From an uncultured bacterium (GTDB lineage: Bacteria > Patescibacteriota > Minisyncoccia > Phycocordibacterales > GWA1-40-21), in contig CAIKXE010000004.1 of the NCBI GenBank assembly GCA_903831305.1, positions 147,524 through 211,523 on the forward strand: a stretch of DNA of 64,000 nt. The letters run 5' to 3'. This document shows, in pieces, positions 6,618-41,514 of this stretch. Below the pieces are notes generated by a model. That model was not told the origin of the DNA. It ran no database searches and worked only from the letters and a program-made list of their open reading frames with translations. The position numbers were made by a program, and so were the translations under genes. Position 1 is the stretch's first letter, and the number at the start of each line of letters is the position of its first letter.

Positions 6618-7481
6618 ATGGAAAATACGAATAATCAAAATAGTTGTTGTGAAGGTGGAGTTTGTAAGGACGGTGCTACTTGTGGTTCTTGTTGTAAAAT
6701 GTGTGAAAACATGGGCATGTGCCATGGTGGTAAGGGCCACAAAATAATGAAGTTTGCTGTTATTATCATTGTCATCCTTATCATTGTTAAAATTCTTGGT
6801 GGTGGTCATGGTGACTGGAGAGATAATAAAGTAATAAACACCATTACCGTCTCTGGTACTGGTGAAATAGTGGTCAAGCCAGATATTGCCACTGTTTCTT
6901 TTGGTGTTACCGCTGAAAATCTGGATGTAGCCAAAGCGCAAACAGAGTCCGCCACAAAAATAAATAATATTATTGCTTTCCTAAAAACTAAGGGCGTTGA
7001 GGAAAAGGACATTAAGACTACAAACTATAGTATCTACCCTCGTTATAATTATGTCGGTGCTACTACTTATTATCCTTACACTGGCAGGCAGGTACTCGCG
7101 GCTTATGTTATTTCTCAGAACATAGAAGTAAAAATCCGAAATATTGCTGATGCCGGCGCCGTTCTTACTGGGGTGGGTGAGTTTGGAGTGACGGATGTCA
7201 GTGGTTTGACTTTCACCGTGGATAATCAAGATGCCGTAAAGGATCAAGCCAGGGACCTTGCTATCACTGATGCCAAGGCTCAAGCCAAGGTTTTAGCTAA
7301 TGGTTTGGGAGTAAAATTAGTCAAGATCACTAGTTTTTCTGAAGGTGGAAACTATCCAGTATATTACGCTATGGATAAGGCCGCTGTTTCTGGTATGGGT
7401 GGAGGTGTTGTGGCCCCTCAAATACCAACCGGGGAGAACAAAATCACTTCTACTGTCAGCGTCACTTACGAAATCAGATAG
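6618..7481 (+). CDS. SIMPL/DUF541-domain protein with Cys-rich cytoplasmic N-terminus and single TM
   Basis: Residues ~80-287 match the SIMPL / 26-kDa periplasmic immunogenic protein pattern (TITVSGTGEIVVKPD…, …TVSVTYEI). The N-terminal 40 aa contain 10 Cys plus His (CCEGGVCKDGATCGSCCKMCENMGMCHGGKGH) followed by a hydrophobic helix. Confidence 0.55.
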   Translation: MENTNNQNSCCEGGVCKDGATCGSCCKMCENMGMCHGGKGHKIMKFAVIIIVILIIVKILGGGHGDWRDNKVINTITVSGTGEIVVKPDIATVSFGVTAENLDVAKAQTESATKINNIIAFLKTKGVEEKDIKTTNYSIYPRYNYVGATTYYPYTGRQVLAAYVISQNIEVKIRNIADAGAVLTGVGEFGVTDVSGLTFTVDNQDAVKDQARDLAITDAKAQAKVLANGLGVKLVKITSFSEGGNYPVYYAMDKAAVSGMGGGVVAPQIPTGENKITSTVSVTYEIR

Positions 7482-7590
7482 CGTTTCTAGGGTAATTTGA
7501 TTTTGGAGGCTTCACAGCCGGGTAGGCGAGAGAGAGCAAATTTTCAGCAGAAAATTATGCGCACTCCAAAATTAAATTACCTAGAAACGC
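7481..7590 (+). repeat. Copy A of a ~72-nt structured repeat element embedded in the loop of a terminator hairpin
   Basis: Outer stem gcgtttctagggtaattt / aaattacctagaaacgc encloses the core 7501-7572 (ttttggaggcttcacagccgggtaggcgagagagagcaaattttcagcagaaaattatgcgcactccaaaat). The core is internally palindromic (ttttggag…ctccaaaa; gcaaattttc…gaaaattatgc). Confidence 0.5.
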
Positions 7591-7673
7591 GGACATTGCA
7601 TTTTGTTTTGCTACGTGGTAGTATTAAAAGACCTCGGAGACGGGGTTTTTTAATAAAAGAATAATATAAAACT

Positions 7674-7871
7674 ATGTCAAAACTAGGAGAATATTTGAAG
7701 GAAACAAAGGCGGAGTTAAAGCATGTGAGCTGGCCATCTAAGAATCAGGCGGTGTTATTCACTGTGATTGTTGTCGTTTTTTCTATCATTGTGGCTATCT
7801 TCCTGGGGGCTTTTGACTATATTTTTACCATTGGACTCAAAAAAGTTTTGGAGCTCAAAAATCTGATTTAA
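7674..7871 (+). CDS. secE: Preprotein translocase subunit SecE
   Basis: 65 aa with a single C-terminal TM helix and the conserved synteny directly upstream of nusG. The pattern …KETKAELKHVSWPSK… is typical SecE. Confidence 0.75.
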   Translation: MSKLGEYLKETKAELKHVSWPSKNQAVLFTVIVVVFSIIVAIFLGAFDYIFTIGLKKVLELKNLI

Positions 7872-7895
7872 TAATTTAAATTTTAAACCAAATAA

Positions 7896-8441
7896 ATGGC
7901 TAAACAAAATATACAAGAAGGTAGAAATTGGTATGCTATCCACACTTATGCGGGTTATGAAAATGCCGTGGCTAGAAATCTAAAGCAGAGAATTGACTCC
8001 TTGAATATGAATGACAAGATCTTTGAGGTGATTGTTCCGATTGAGAAAAAGATTAAAATCAAAGGTGGTAAAAGAATAGAAGAGGAAGAGAAGATCTACC
8101 CCGGTTATGTCCTGGTGGATATGGCCGTGACTGATGATTCCTGGTATGTAGTGAGAAACACCCCTCGGGTGACCGGGTTTGTGGGTTCTGGGGTTTATCC
8201 GGTACCGCTAAGTAAAGAGGAGGTAGACAATATTTTCAGCCGAATGAACGCCAATACCGTCAAGCATAATAGCGGTTTGTCTGTAGATGACGCGGTGGTG
8301 ATTACGGATGGTCCGTTTAAGGATCTGGAAGGTAAGGTGAGTGAGGTGGATAACGAGCGTGGTAAGGTCAAGGTGTTGGTTTTGATGTTTGGCCGGGAGA
8401 CTTCTGTGGAGCTTGATATGTTGCAGATTCGCCCAATTTAA
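7896..8441 (+). CDS. nusG: Transcription termination/antitermination factor NusG
   Basis: NGN domain (WYAIHTYAGYENAV) and C-terminal KOW motif (GKVSEV…GKVKVLVLMFGRETSVELD). Confidence 0.85.
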   Translation: MAKQNIQEGRNWYAIHTYAGYENAVARNLKQRIDSLNMNDKIFEVIVPIEKKIKIKGGKRIEEEEKIYPGYVLVDMAVTDDSWYVVRNTPRVTGFVGSGVYPVPLSKEEVDNIFSRMNANTVKHNSGLSVDDAVVITDGPFKDLEGKVSEVDNERGKVKVLVLMFGRETSVELDMLQIRPI

Positions 8442-8498
8442 GGTAGTTTATTAATAGTCTGATTCGCTTCTAAGTCAGACAAATTATAAAATAAAAAA

Positions 8499-8924
8499 AT
8501 GGCAAAGAAAATAACAAAAAAATTAAAGTTACAAATCCCGGCTGGTAAAGCTAATCCCGCTCCACCAGTTGGCCCCGCTCTTGGTCAGGCTGGTATTAAT
8601 ATCGGTGACTTCGTCCAAAAGTTTAATGCCGCTACCGTGAAGATGATGGGGGACATTGTCCCGGTGGAAATCACTGTTTATGAGGATCGTTCTTATGATT
8701 TTAAACTAAAGACTCCACCCGCAACCGGTTTGATTCTTAAGGCCGCTGGCGTGGAGAGTGGTTCTGGTAAGCAATTAGTCAAAAAGGCTGGTACTATCAC
8801 TCGTGCTCAGGTCAAAGCCATCGCGGAGAAGAAAATGGCTGATCTAAATGCCAATGATATCAACGGTGCCATGAAAATCATTGAGGGCTCTTGTAGGTCT
8901 ATGGGGGTGGAAGTGAAGGGGTGA
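8499..8924 (+). CDS. rplK: 50S ribosomal protein L11
   Basis: [35 protein letters not shown]… is canonical L11. Confidence 0.95.
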
Positions 8925-8933
8925 TTTTGTTCG

Positions 8934-9036
8934 CCCCGTAACTATATCATTTTGGAGTGCGCATAATTTTCTGCTGAAAATTTGCTCTCTCTCGGCTACC
9001 CGCCTGTGAAGCCTCCAAAACGATACAGTTACGGGG
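8934..9036 (-). repeat. Copy B of the ~72-nt structured repeat element (inverted relative to copy A), in the loop of the rplK terminator hairpin
   Basis: Outer stem ccccgtaactatatcatttt / aaaacgatacagttacgggg. Core 8949-9020 is the reverse complement of the copy A core with 2 substitutions in 72 nt. Confidence 0.5.
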
Positions 9037-9061
9037 CTCACCTAAATAATTGATATTACAA

Positions 9062-9100
9062 ACAAAAAACAACCCTTTATCAAGGGTTGTTTTTTGTACT
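9062..9100. terminator. Hairpin terminator
   Basis: aaaaaacaaccctttatcaagggttgttttttg, with A-run and T-run on either side. Confidence 0.5.
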
Positions 9101-9120
9101 GTGGGGTGTAAAATCAAGGG

Positions 9121-9615
9121 ATGGAAAATACTAAATATGTGCGACCGAGTTGGGATGAATATTTTATGAATATTGTGCGAGCCGTTGGCGGGAGGGCTAC
9201 TTGTGATCGGGGGCGAACCGGCTGTGTGATTGTAAAAGATAAACATATTATTTCCACTGGTTATGTGGGAGCACCGGCTGGTTGTAAAAGCTGTGATGAG
9301 GTTGATCACGAATTAAACACGGTCATTCAGGAAGATGGTACCCAAACAAAACATTGTGTGCGGACTACTCACAATGAACAAAACGCGCTTGTTCAAGCTG
9401 CTCGTTTTGGTGTCAGTACTGATGGTGGAACTTTGTATTGTATGATGACACCGTGTTATACCTGTGCCAAATTGCTGATTAATGCGGGCATTAAAAGAGT
9501 AGTTGCGGAAAAAGATTATCATGCGGGGACTAGGAGTAAGGCAATATTTGCTGAAGCGGGTGTTCAGTATGAATTATTAAATGCCGAGGTGGTGTCTTAT
9601 TCTAATATGAAATAA
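9121..9615 (+). CDS. dCMP deaminase (cytidine/deoxycytidylate deaminase family, ComEB-like)
   Basis: Zinc-binding motifs H-N-E-Q-N-A (HNEQNAL) and PCYTCAKLLINAGIKRVV. Confidence 0.8.
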   Translation: MENTKYVRPSWDEYFMNIVRAVGGRATCDRGRTGCVIVKDKHIISTGYVGAPAGCKSCDEVDHELNTVIQEDGTQTKHCVRTTHNEQNALVQAARFGVSTDGGTLYCMMTPCYTCAKLLINAGIKRVVAEKDYHAGTRSKAIFAEAGVQYELLNAEVVSYSNMK

Positions 9616-39926: not shown

Positions 39927-40664
39927 ATGTTAGACCAAAACAAACAACAGAATAGCCTTCATAGTACTGGTGTTGGCCAGTCTAATACAGCGACCTTGGA
40001 CTGCATATTTTTAAAGGACAATCCAAAGTCCGCTTATCAGTATAAAAAGACAGAGAAGTTAGTATCAGCCATATATCTACTTTCCAATTTTGTCTCAGAC
40101 AAAGAGCCCCTCAAATGGCAGCTACGAGAGACCGCTTTAGAGCTAGTTTCTGTCTCTTTTGATCAGACTAAAATTGTGCCGGTTATTCTTCGTCTTATGT
40201 CTATACTGCAGGTGGCCAGAATCAGCGGGATTGTCTCCGAGATGAATTTTAGTATCCTCAAGTATGAGTTTGATTTGCTGGCTAGGGCAGCTGAGGAAGG
40301 CGGTAACAGTGGTGCTCAGGGGGTAATCTTTCCAGATCATTTTTTTACAGTAGAAAAACCCACTGAAGACAATAGTAGTGTTAATTTTCCTAAAGGACAT
40401 CAGGTACTGTCTGATAGGTTGTCCATTAGAAATAGTCAGGATAATGTCCGGACTCAGGAGGTAAAACACCAGGATAAATCTAACAGACAGGATTTAATTA
40501 TTTCCTTATTACGTAAGAATAGTGAGCTCGGAATAAAGGACTTCACTTTGTCCATCAAGGACTGCAGTGAAAAGACTATCCAGCGAGAATTGGTCGCTCT
40601 AGTGTCTAAAGGACAGGTTAAAAAAGTGGGGGAAAAGCGCTGGTCTAGGTATAGCCTTAAATAA
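39927..40664 (+). CDS. Hypothetical protein with C-terminal winged-helix DNA-binding domain (putative regulator)
   Basis: C-terminal ~60 aa DLIISLLRKNSELGIKDFTL…TIQRELVALVSKGQVKKVG resemble a DeoR/wHTH fold. N-terminal domain unknown. Confidence 0.4.
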   Translation: MLDQNKQQNSLHSTGVGQSNTATLDCIFLKDNPKSAYQYKKTEKLVSAIYLLSNFVSDKEPLKWQLRETALELVSVSFDQTKIVPVILRLMSILQVARISGIVSEMNFSILKYEFDLLARAAEEGGNSGAQGVIFPDHFFTVEKPTEDNSSVNFPKGHQVLSDRLSIRNSQDNVRTQEVKHQDKSNRQDLIISLLRKNSELGIKDFTLSIKDCSEKTIQRELVALVSKGQVKKVGEKRWSRYSLK

Positions 40665-41514
40665 TAGGCCTTCGTCGAACCATCTTCCTTTGGAGGGGCT
40701 TTTGAGCCTGACTGAGGTGAAAACGGAGAATTTTTTTAGCAGAAAAAATTCGTACCAGGGATATGGATGTGGTGAGAAAGAAGGCTGGTAAGGATTGGCA
40801 GAAGAAATAGGGGAAAAGGGTTGCTTTTTACCCCATAATATGCTATCCTTTCCCCTGTGGATTATGGCTCTTTATTGAGTTATCCACAGCCCCTATTTTG
40901 CTTATTTCCTAAGTAAAATATATAATACAGGGACAAGTAGTGTTAGCACCATTTTGTGCTATACTATTTATACCTTATACGAGTGATCTTTGATAAATAA
41001 ATAGAGTCGTAAATCACTGAAATTTCTTTTTCTATTACGCTGTTATAGATTGAATTTCCTTTCCATTCTTATCACTACAATTTCGCTGTTCTTATGTCGA
41101 AATCTTGAGTGCTGGATACTTAAAACAAATATTTATTTTGCCCTTTGTGTTTGTTTTTGGTATCCAGTGCTTGAGATAATATCTGAGCACGAAATATAGT
41201 TTGAAATTATGATAATCATCAGTTTGATATTTTAAAGTGATTATCGGAAAGCGGAGGGTAACAAGCAGGTCAAATTATGTTTGTCATCTTTCGTGAAGGA
41301 TAAAAATATTTTTCTTTGTGAATCGTCAGATTCATCAAAGGAGGTTCGGCCAGTTTTTAGTCGAAACTATGCCGACCATTTCTTAATAAAAAAAATTAAG
41401 AAATGTAGTTTATAAAAATGATCTCTTCTCACATTATTAAATTTTATTAGTTAAGTAGAAGAAATCATTGACTCACTTCTTTACGGAAGGGAGATAATTA
41501 AAAAATTATAAATC

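Follow-up and report, generated by a model that had tools for sequence, protein, structure and literature searches.

A covarying hairpin near secE and rplK belongs to an uncatalogued repeat family of Patescibacteria that may act as a structured RNA

The short hairpin at positions 7517-7527 of the window, by which the whole 64,000-nucleotide stretch of DNA analysed here is meant, is under selection for pairing and not for sequence. In the original prediction it was treated as a selected structure in its own right; it is indeed paired, but it is not free-standing and forms the distal arm (P2b) of a larger conserved fold. The element that carries it recurs in many genomes and constitutes an uncatalogued family, with no match in Rfam, among phages or in the literature. 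Covariation above the controls and an asymmetry of wobble pairs between the two strands were both found, as expected of a structured RNA under selection. On balance, we favour the reading that the hairpin belongs to a non-autonomous structured RNA repeat family, selfish or semi-domesticated.

In the window, the repeat finder reports an inverted pair of copies of one element, copy A on the plus strand and copy B on the minus strand. Over a 72-nt core (A, plus strand 7501-7572; B, minus strand 9020-8949), sequence reading, the repeat finder and pairwise alignment agree on two differences only. Position 7518 is C in A and G in B (window position 9003, minus strand), and position 7526 is G in A and C in B (window position 8995). 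These two positions make the middle pair of a 3-bp hairpin, g7517-c7518-c7519 with g7525-g7526-c7527, around the loop GGGTA (7520-7524), and this hairpin is predicted by RNAfold in A and B alike. The swap of C:G for G:C first noticed within 7514-7535, an interval that encloses the hairpin, is thus real and concerns its middle pair in both copies. The accompanying claim that the copies differ at these two bases only holds for the 72-nt core; outside it the two sequences are unrelated, and each copy still makes its own stem of 25-28 bp. The outer 12-17 bp of this stem (P1) have nothing in common between A and B, yet they are self-complementary within each copy. The features of the copies are as follows.

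7481-7590, plus strand: copy A, whole element, from RNAfold and covariance-model matches; it starts on the last base of the SIMPL/DUF541 stop codon.
7481-7508, plus strand: copy A, 5' arm of P1; its distal 12 nt are found in this copy only, and the proximal TAATTTGATTTTGGAG is semi-conserved in the subfamily, by comparison with W-type copies.
7564-7590, plus strand: copy A, P1 3' arm, pairing with 7481-7508.
7511-7532, plus strand: copy A, P2 domain, made of P2a (7511-7513 with 7530-7532, UUC/GAG, with a conserved U.G), the internal loop ACA/GA and P2b.
7517-7527, plus strand: copy A, P2b, the hairpin first noticed, GCC-GGGUA-GGC, with the swapped pair 7518:7526.
7533-7535, plus strand: copy A, junction AGA.
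7536-7545 with 7550-7556 and 7558-7560, plus strand: copy A, P3, with bulged A7557 and the loop AGCA at 7546-7549.
7561-7562 with G7509-C7510, plus strand: copy A, inner closing pairs GC, with bulged A7563.
8933-9037, minus strand: copy B, whole element, antisense, between the rplK stop (8924) and a bidirectional terminator (9062-9097); its P1 arms are 9037-9013 and 8957-8933.
8994-9004, minus strand: copy B, P2b, GGC-GGGUA-GCC, the commonest version in the family.
40667-40786, plus strand: third, divergent and partly decayed copy, with the core at 40689-40763 and P2b GCCU-GACUG-AGGU.

Folded as the sense strand, the whole hairpin reaches a minimum free energy of -51.9 kcal/mol in A (z = -9.4) and -60.6 kcal/mol in B (z = -9.7) in RNAfold. 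The opposite strands also fold stably but more weakly, at -47 and -49 kcal/mol, because several of the stem pairs are G.U. Both copies match the covariance models well, with 102 bits each in the first search and 88 (A) and 90 bits (B) in the second. Only copy B has the sequence GTAAC/GTTAC. Positions 7430-7447 and 8921-8938 agree at 17 of 18 bases, in a geometry that suits neither a nested helix nor a simple flip, and this match may be due to chance (estimated p about 0.02 in the region). A third near-identical copy was searched for in the window and is absent. The degenerate relative at 40689-40763 (plus strand) was found by the second covariance model (28.8 bits, E about 1e-5); its inner P1 is mismatched and its fold has a z of only -2.7. 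It is of the same subtype as the copy that follows rplK in the relative L012 (11053-11128, minus strand), and L012, its closest relative, has GGCU/AGCC where this copy has GCCU/AGGU, so that a G:C is again exchanged for a C:G at the corresponding pair.

The two main copies lie among core genes, in the order SIMPL/DUF541 (6618-7481), copy A, a small terminator (7632-7651), secE, nusG, rplK, copy B, the bidirectional terminator (9062-9097) and a dCMP deaminase gene; copy B is antisense and begins 9 nt past the rplK stop. Homologues of NusG place the host in the Paceibacteria/Parcubacteria part of the CPR. The terminator scan finds no intrinsic terminator at A or B themselves, separate canonical ones following each of them, and a sigma-70 promoter scan returned nothing at either copy. 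ARAGORN detects no tRNA or tmRNA gene in the 64-kb window. Inverted copies can rearrange core operons, and an apparent inversion of secE-nusG-rplK was observed.

All copies of the family share one architecture, in which a long P1 of 25-45 bp is capped by a three-way junction of ~55 nt. The apical parts are P2a (UUC/GAG, with the conserved U.G), a GNA/GA internal loop, P2b, a purine junction of the GAGAGA type, to which the junction AGA belongs as part of a GAGAGAGA run, and P3, which has 10 bp, a bulged A and an AGCA loop and is followed by one or two closing pairs leading into P1. Hardly any variation is seen at the unpaired positions, namely the junction bases, the AGCA loop and the bulged A. 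P2b, in turn, is a conserved base with a free tip that tolerates anything from 4 nt up to expansions of about 110 nt. Some genomes have a form of ~190 nt, which keeps this fold and owes its length to about 110 nt added to P2b; other copies carry insertions of about 45 nt at or beside P2b (L063, L051 and L031 have expanded P2b tips). The subtype of the window has a semi-conserved unit of ~88 nt (TAATATGATTTTGGAG-core-CTCCAAAAATTATATTA), and every copy of it is flanked by a unique, complementary distal stem of 6-15 bp. The core is conserved across genera over a genomic GC range of 37-63%, and in genomes of 59-63% GC P3 stays AT-rich while P1 is GC-rich. The stem of L044 is perfect over 30 bp and has the appearance of being recently made.

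Covariation was measured on 47 distinct copies from genome assemblies and, independently, on 55 distinct copies from metagenomes. In the genome set, 93.4% of cells are standard pairs, compared with 70.3% in column shuffles (none of 500 reaches the observed value) and 42-59% when the columns are slid by 1-3; in the metagenome set the values are 95.1% paired, 77.3% in shuffles and 38-62% when slid, the percentages of pairing being somewhat inflated in both sets by covariance-model alignments fitted to the structure, a concern that is limited by the raw P2 sequences and the slid controls. Double changes occur at all 27 pairs in the genome set. P2b is paired in 99.1% (genome set) and 99.4% (metagenome set) of cells, P2a in 94-97.5%, with the covarying versions UAC/GUG, UGC/GCG, CGC/GCG and AGC/GCU and with the U.G wobble as consensus first pair in most copies, and P3 in 99.8%, with double changes at 10 of 10 pairs. 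At the swapped pair itself, the genome set has G:C 26 times, C:G 9 times, U.G twice and G.U once, and the metagenome set has G:C 51 times, G.U once and U:A once, counts that do not represent independent events as many copies are related. Non-compensatory changes at this pair, the outcome that would have spoken against the hairpin, were looked for in all 47 genome and 55 metagenome copies, and it is unpaired in none of them.

The raw sequences contain at least 14 Watson-Crick versions of P2b, among them GGC/GCC, GCC/GGC, AGCC/GGCU, GGCC/GGCC, GCGC/GCGC, GCUC/GAGC, CCGC/GCGG, AUGC/GCAU, AGAC/GUCU and GGUC/GACC. The loop varies freely in sequence and length (GGGUA, GACUG, GACG, GACCG, GGCG), and the GCC/GGC version of copy A reappears in L033, an unrelated GC-rich genome. 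With pairing kept in the further copies and in so many versions, the interpretation of the swap as the mark of a functional RNA or DNA hairpin is supported. The argument that covariation between A and B was already the classic signature of such a hairpin stands in so far as the swap preserves pairing, but two copies alone lack statistical weight. By our own estimate, which assumes that the first hit falls on a paired base, a second substitution restores the partner by chance with a probability of (1/71) x (1/3), roughly 0.5%; for two sequences this figure is suggestive and amounts to weak evidence, and it is the further copies that are decisive. The stronger covariation sits outside 7514-7535, in the copy-specific P1 stems of 25-28 bp, in P2a and in P3.

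How the swap arose is a separate matter. A templated quasi-palindrome correction could produce such a change in one step without selection, and the difference between A and B may stem from a correction of this kind within the hairpin, since no wobble pair can serve as a step between G:C and C:G. Such an origin tells how the mutation came about and has no bearing on whether pairing is maintained. The family consensus and the near-identical core in locus L126 indicate that the G:C of B is ancestral and the C:G of A derived. A micro-inversion as the source was rejected: the reverse complement of GGCGGGTAGCC is GGCTACCCGCC and not the GCCGGGTAGGC of copy A. A flipped P2b does occur in L027.

It is on the sense strand of the core, and on that strand only, that selection maintains the fold. 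With "sense" set by the core, transition-type mismatches were counted in 93 distinct P1 stems, and the sense strand has 158 G.U against 11 A.C, compared with 61 against 73 in the reverse-complement control. The sense stem is the stabler one in 78 of the 93 stems, by a mean of 5.2 kcal/mol, and separate sets agree. Homogenisation of palindrome arms at the DNA level is strand-blind and cannot give this asymmetry of G.U and A.C, so the fold must be selected as a single strand. Given the wobble asymmetry and the conserved U.G in P2a, the active form is most likely RNA, although strand-specific folding and tolerance of wobbles could also suit a single-stranded DNA substrate.

The family was collected with a search pattern that left the hairpin unconstrained. 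Applied to GTDB species representatives, it yielded 31 loci, with up to 8 or more copies per genome; their titles are mostly Paceibacterota, Yanofskybacteria, Zambryskibacteria and Patescibacteria, with about ten Saccharibacteria and one Gammaproteobacteria. The same kind of pattern matches 107 metagenome stretches, and contigs of the same species as the window have identical A and B. A covariance model built from eight window-type copies recovered all pattern loci and, in addition, divergent copies that lack the pattern. A single 98-kb contig can have as many as 3 copies (L067, L091, L101), and one lineage of Yanofskybacteria has at least 15 near-identical copies of ~200 nt with the outer inverted repeat AAAGACTATACCC/GGGTATAGTCTTT. 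As far as sampled, the family is confined to Paceibacteria-type Patescibacteria (CPR). The 4227 models of Rfam 15 give no family match on the window, the related loci or the long form, and none overlaps the elements even at E up to 10; on 120 kb of related loci, only tRNAs were reported. The exact pattern is absent from viral contigs, blastn against phage genomes gave no match, and a full-text literature search found no published description of the element. The same search brought up the TIGR-Tas arrays of Parcubacteria, but these are tandem arrangements accompanied by a Tas gene, and the copies of the element are solitary.

The mobility of the element is inferred from presence/absence and bursts of copies only. 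In the relatives L014-L016, whose NusG is 91-95% identical, the whole hairpin is absent at both sites, and the empty sites have no palindrome, by which insertion into a pre-existing palindrome or terminator loop was rejected. L012, L005 and L047 have the element at the SIMPL-secE site in the opposite orientation, and the rplK site of L012 holds a different subtype. Orientation relative to the neighbouring genes is random (10 same/same, 11 opposite/opposite), with 11 of 39 copies antisense to both. The base of the hairpin lies 15 nt or less from the 3' end of a gene in 24 of 63 cases and from a 5' end in 4. The genes next to the copies are ordinary, unrelated housekeeping genes: the 150 non-redundant ones match 197 Pfam families without any recurrent one, and among 355 neighbour ORFs (about 8-20 kb round each copy) no gene for a transposase, reverse transcriptase, HUH or Y1 protein or integrase was detected. 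Target-site duplications were found neither in the comparison of filled and empty sites nor in the flanks of 17 aligned copies, and no defined transposition ends are seen. Some copies adjoin the same genes in distant genomes, as at L25/ctc, prfA-rpmE and the SIMPL-secE site.

Several known classes were considered and rejected. The missing target-site duplications, in the filled/empty comparison and the 17 flanks, speak against a MITE; as to terminal repeats, an outer inverted repeat is conserved in the Yanofskybacteria subtype, and copies of the window subtype all differ from one another in their outermost 6-15 bp. An integron attC site (RYYYAAC...GTTRRRY ends) does not fit, as the ends are not conserved and the copies are solitary and scattered among housekeeping genes. 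An intrinsic terminator was discarded on the negative scan at both copies, and a riboswitch or cis-regulatory leader on the random orientation and the 197 neighbour families without a recurrent one. A type I toxin-antitoxin (Sib/Ibs-like) or small-ORF repeat is contradicted by the only shared frame, in which both A/B differences are non-synonymous (QPGRR versus QAGSR), and any conserved reading frame by the length of P2, which varies by 1-2 nt among copies and breaks the frame. No reverse transcriptase, TnpB or IscB gene adjoins any copy, which speaks against a retron ncRNA, a DGR RNA or a TnpB or IscB omega RNA, and the ~190-nt long form has no TnpB, IscB or IS110 neighbour for which it could serve as an omega RNA or bridge RNA. 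A DGR is present in L014, a relative in which that site lacks the element. Within a single operon transcript, A could in principle pair with the antisense of B over 72 complementary nucleotides; as the way in which the family acts this was set aside too, as the local stems of each copy are stronger and members of the family are mostly solitary.

By analogy, the element appears to work most like the structured intergenic repeats of the ERIC/REP type. Like ERIC/IRU, Correia/NEMIS, RUP, BOX and YPAL, it is a gene-less, long imperfect hairpin of about 100-200 bp that is multi-copy, intergenic and found in either orientation; in ERIC-type repeats as in the element, moreover, relatives differ in whether a copy is present, and insertions at set internal points (for the element, at the tip of P2b and immediately behind it) give rise to size variants. 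In ERIC-type repeats it is the ends or the whole sequence that is conserved, and they usually have terminal inverted repeats and target duplications. Unlike them, the element has its peak of conservation at the apical three-way junction and a copy-specific outer stem, resides in CPR hosts and has no sequence similarity to them. With REP/REPIN it has in common a strand-specific hairpin that is gene-less and multi-copy and, as inferred for the element, depends on a factor in trans. However, REPINs conserve the stem (two inverted REPs with a GTAG or CGTC tag) and vary the tip; in the element the pattern is reversed, with a conserved tip, variable stems and no shared GTAG/CGTC tag, and no RAYT-like gene is nearby, so membership of the REP/REPIN-RAYT class was rejected. 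Orphan ncRNA motifs of the Rfam type resemble it in the covarying multi-helix fold, the conserved junction nucleotides and the absence of a known ligand or partner, but the element differs from them in its unusually high copy number, random orientation and insertion-like polymorphism. In architecture, with a core of about 55-70 nt, a closing helix and two hairpins, it is similar to the hammerhead ribozyme, the purine riboswitch aptamer and phi29 pRNA; it has neither CUGAUGA/GAAA, nor the purine-riboswitch junction, nor pRNA-like complementary loops, and it is not fixed upstream of any gene class. The ITR of parvoviruses (AAV) recalls the element in its T-shape with two tip hairpins, GAG(C/A)-rich sequence near the junction and a flip/flop tip. 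The AAV ITR, however, is the DNA end of a linear ssDNA virus with a Rep gene, whereas the element is internal and chromosomal, has no Rep or HUH gene nearby and keeps a conserved wobble that points to RNA.

In the structured RNA repeat that we favour, the sense RNA would arise from transcription running on out of adjacent genes or from the element's own weak promoter. The bases of the junction and of P3 that are unpaired and invariant may offer a surface, for binding or for catalysis, to a factor provided in trans. Since P2b needs pairing and not sequence and its tip is free, it would be a structural or spacer arm that positions the conserved internal loop and the junction, and not a recognition site. 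The long P1 would serve as a clamp, possibly as a substrate of RNase III, with a sequence that drifts by compensatory change, and the family may persist as a non-autonomous selfish or semi-domesticated repeat. Against this proposal weigh the negative promoter and terminator scans at the window copies and the about one-third of copies that are antisense to both neighbours, as well as the target-site duplications, defined ends and mobilising enzyme that were searched for and not found. A related reading assumes an RNA-centred mobile or self-processing unit, in which the junction would be a small ribozyme or dedicated recognition module enabling the gene-less hairpin to copy itself via an RNA or RNA-templated intermediate, or the outer stems would be a guide-duplex payload on a constant scaffold. 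It would agree with the observations that the junction is invariant over 37-63% GC, the distal stems are unique and almost perfectly paired (in the window subtype) and no protein partner is visible; we regard it as quite unlikely.

The other explanations differ in what they make of the strand, the position and the movement of the element. It might be an ssDNA element whose T-shaped hairpin is read as folded single-stranded DNA by a trans-acting HUH/Y1 transposase, integrase or priming system and which spreads as DNA with no RNA role. Recognition of this kind is known from IS200/IS605 and REP-RAYT (HUH/Y1), attC (integrase) and single-strand origins (priming), and strand-specific, wobble-tolerant folds are found in attC bottom strands and IS608 ends. 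The gene-less, mobile-like behaviour, the orientation unrelated to neighbouring transcription and the absence of a promoter in the scan would all agree with it, as would the fact that both the core and P2b are met in flipped form; the combination of a long stem, a pair of small hairpins at its tip and a junction rich in GAGC/GAGA also recalls the parvoviral ITR with its GAGC Rep-binding repeats. However, the consensus first pair of P2a is U.G (T.G in DNA), which is usual in RNA and unusual in a DNA stem. A and B are opposed within 1.5 kb, so that orientation is not tied to the replication strand, and the 355 neighbour ORFs include no HUH, Y1 or integrase gene and the element ends no conserved cleavage motif. 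We consider this explanation unlikely. The movement is what a vertically inherited, non-mobile family of host sRNAs fails to accommodate. In such a family the junction would bind or titrate a housekeeping protein and P1 would be a processing stem, in line with the core highly conserved across genera and from 37 to 63% GC, the covariation in every helix and the same-gene positions in distant genomes (L25/ctc, prfA-rpmE, SIMPL-secE). CPR genomes are typically ~1 Mb in size, and 3 copies per 98-kb contig and 8 or more per assembly are far above known sRNA families for such a genome. Relatives with a NusG identity of 91-95%, moreover, have no element at the corresponding sites, single sites show flips of orientation and replacement of subtype, near-identical copies of ~200 nt occur in bursts, and the scans of the window copies found no promoter or terminator signature. 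This explanation, too, is unlikely.

The closeness to gene ends suggests a cis-acting 3'-UTR element that stabilises or terminates the transcript of the abutting gene in a REP/ERIC-like manner, since 24 of 63 hairpin bases lie within 15 nt of a 3' end, A starts on a stop codon, B lies 9 nt past that of rplK, and both strands fold stably. With 11 of 39 copies antisense to both neighbours and orientation random, yet one strand selected, this is very unlikely; a simple stabiliser would need neither invariant junction and loop bases nor a three-way junction, and canonical terminators already follow A (7632-7651) and B (9062-9097). The remaining explanation is a neutral palindromic repeat, in which the swap and the matched arms would result from templated mutation or arm-to-arm gene conversion with no selection on the fold. 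Template switching in hairpins can copy a change from arm to arm in one step, and the lack of a wobble intermediate between G:C and C:G, perfect 30-bp stems such as that of L044 and DNA-level flips of P2b (L027) and of the core are compatible with it. It is disfavoured, and in our judgement hardly credible: DNA homogenisation is strand-blind, yet the sense-strand mismatches are 158 G.U to 11 A.C, no positions are more conserved than the unpaired bases of junction and loop, the U.G of P2a is kept and not corrected to a perfect pair, and the core stays conserved in genomes that differ widely in GC.

The genomes of CPR/Patescibacteria measure about 1 Mb, hardly any of their DNA is non-coding, and few non-coding RNAs have been described from them. 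In them, a repeat with well over a hundred sampled copies and covariation in all four helices nevertheless comes and goes between relatives. It would have one of two roles: that of a selfish element reliant on an RNA fold, a rarity among bacteria, or that of an abundant RNA that partners an unknown CPR protein. The family supplies a covariance model for the annotation of CPR genomes and a concrete candidate for biochemistry.

The hairpin element is not confined in the window to copy A (7481-7590, plus strand, after the SIMPL gene) and copy B (8933-9037, minus strand, after rplK), and the following features were located around these two copies and elsewhere in the window:

40667-40786, plus strand: third element copy, divergent and partly decayed (core 40689-40763, covariance-model score 28.8 bits)
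7430-7447 and 8921-8938: 18-nt inverted match, 17/18, CGGGGAGAACAAAATCAC versus its complement
7632-7651: small canonical terminator, CCUCG-GAGA-CGGGG followed by a U run
9062-9097: bidirectional canonical terminator, perfect 16-bp

The third copy is immediately preceded by a gene end at 40664 and shares its subtype with a copy sited after rplK in the relative L012 (11053-11128, minus strand). Comparison of these two reveals another G:C to C:G swap in P2b, the small distal hairpin arm whose middle pair is also exchanged between copies A and B. An otherwise normal element in L027 (6759-6825) carries P2b with its hairpin loop flipped to the reverse complement (GGCTACCCCGGGCC); this shows that DNA inversions on a small scale occur among these elements and that no constraint acts on the P2b loop. 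At its 3' end, the element in L034 (3948-4083) is partly duplicated in tandem, with TTATGCGATCTGTAAATGAGTTGGGTAAGCGAAT occurring again.

Larger rearrangements were considered by comparing two loci:

L006, 540-760: contig present in two samples, with rplK linked to rpsJ via a hybrid element
L046, 305-494: locus with the gene order taken as the starting point

The hybrid element combines the 3' arm of copy B with an A-like 5' arm. This would be the expected outcome of recombination between the inverted copies A and B, flipping secE-nusG-rplK, in a strain whose gene order was that of L046; the rplK-rpsJ join may also be a chimeric assembly. Of the two halves of the 18-nt inverted match, 7430-7447 falls in the terminal part of the SIMPL gene, 34 nt upstream of copy A, and 8921-8938 overlaps both the stop codon of rplK and copy B's outer arm. 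No simple model fits this match, and it may be due to chance.

The terminator at 7632-7651, approximately 22 nt upstream of secE, is conserved in the relatives L005, L012, and L014, and that at 9062-9097, conserved in L008-L011 and L014-L015, separates rplK and copy B from the dCMP deaminase gene. The latter belongs to a nucleotide-metabolism cluster following rplK (dCMP deaminase, an AAA kinase-like gene, thymidylate kinase, and ThyX). In the window (8499-9615), as in relatives, rplA is absent directly after rplK; the lack of uL1 is a known trait of CPR bacteria (PMC9297842). In the close relative L014, folD and the SIMPL gene are separated by an inserted diversity-generating retroelement cassette (7387-8803; bAvd accessory gene and reverse transcriptase, with an adjoining 635-aa ORF), and the neighbouring sites are without the hairpin element.

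Element copies were also found at L044 2855-3005 and L033 2631-2772, on contigs of 59% and 63% GC, one of which is titled Gammaproteobacteria. Their P1 stems are perfect and GC-rich (30 bp in L044), and P3 is AT-rich as usual. This combination points to either horizontal spread of the element or very strong sequence constraint.
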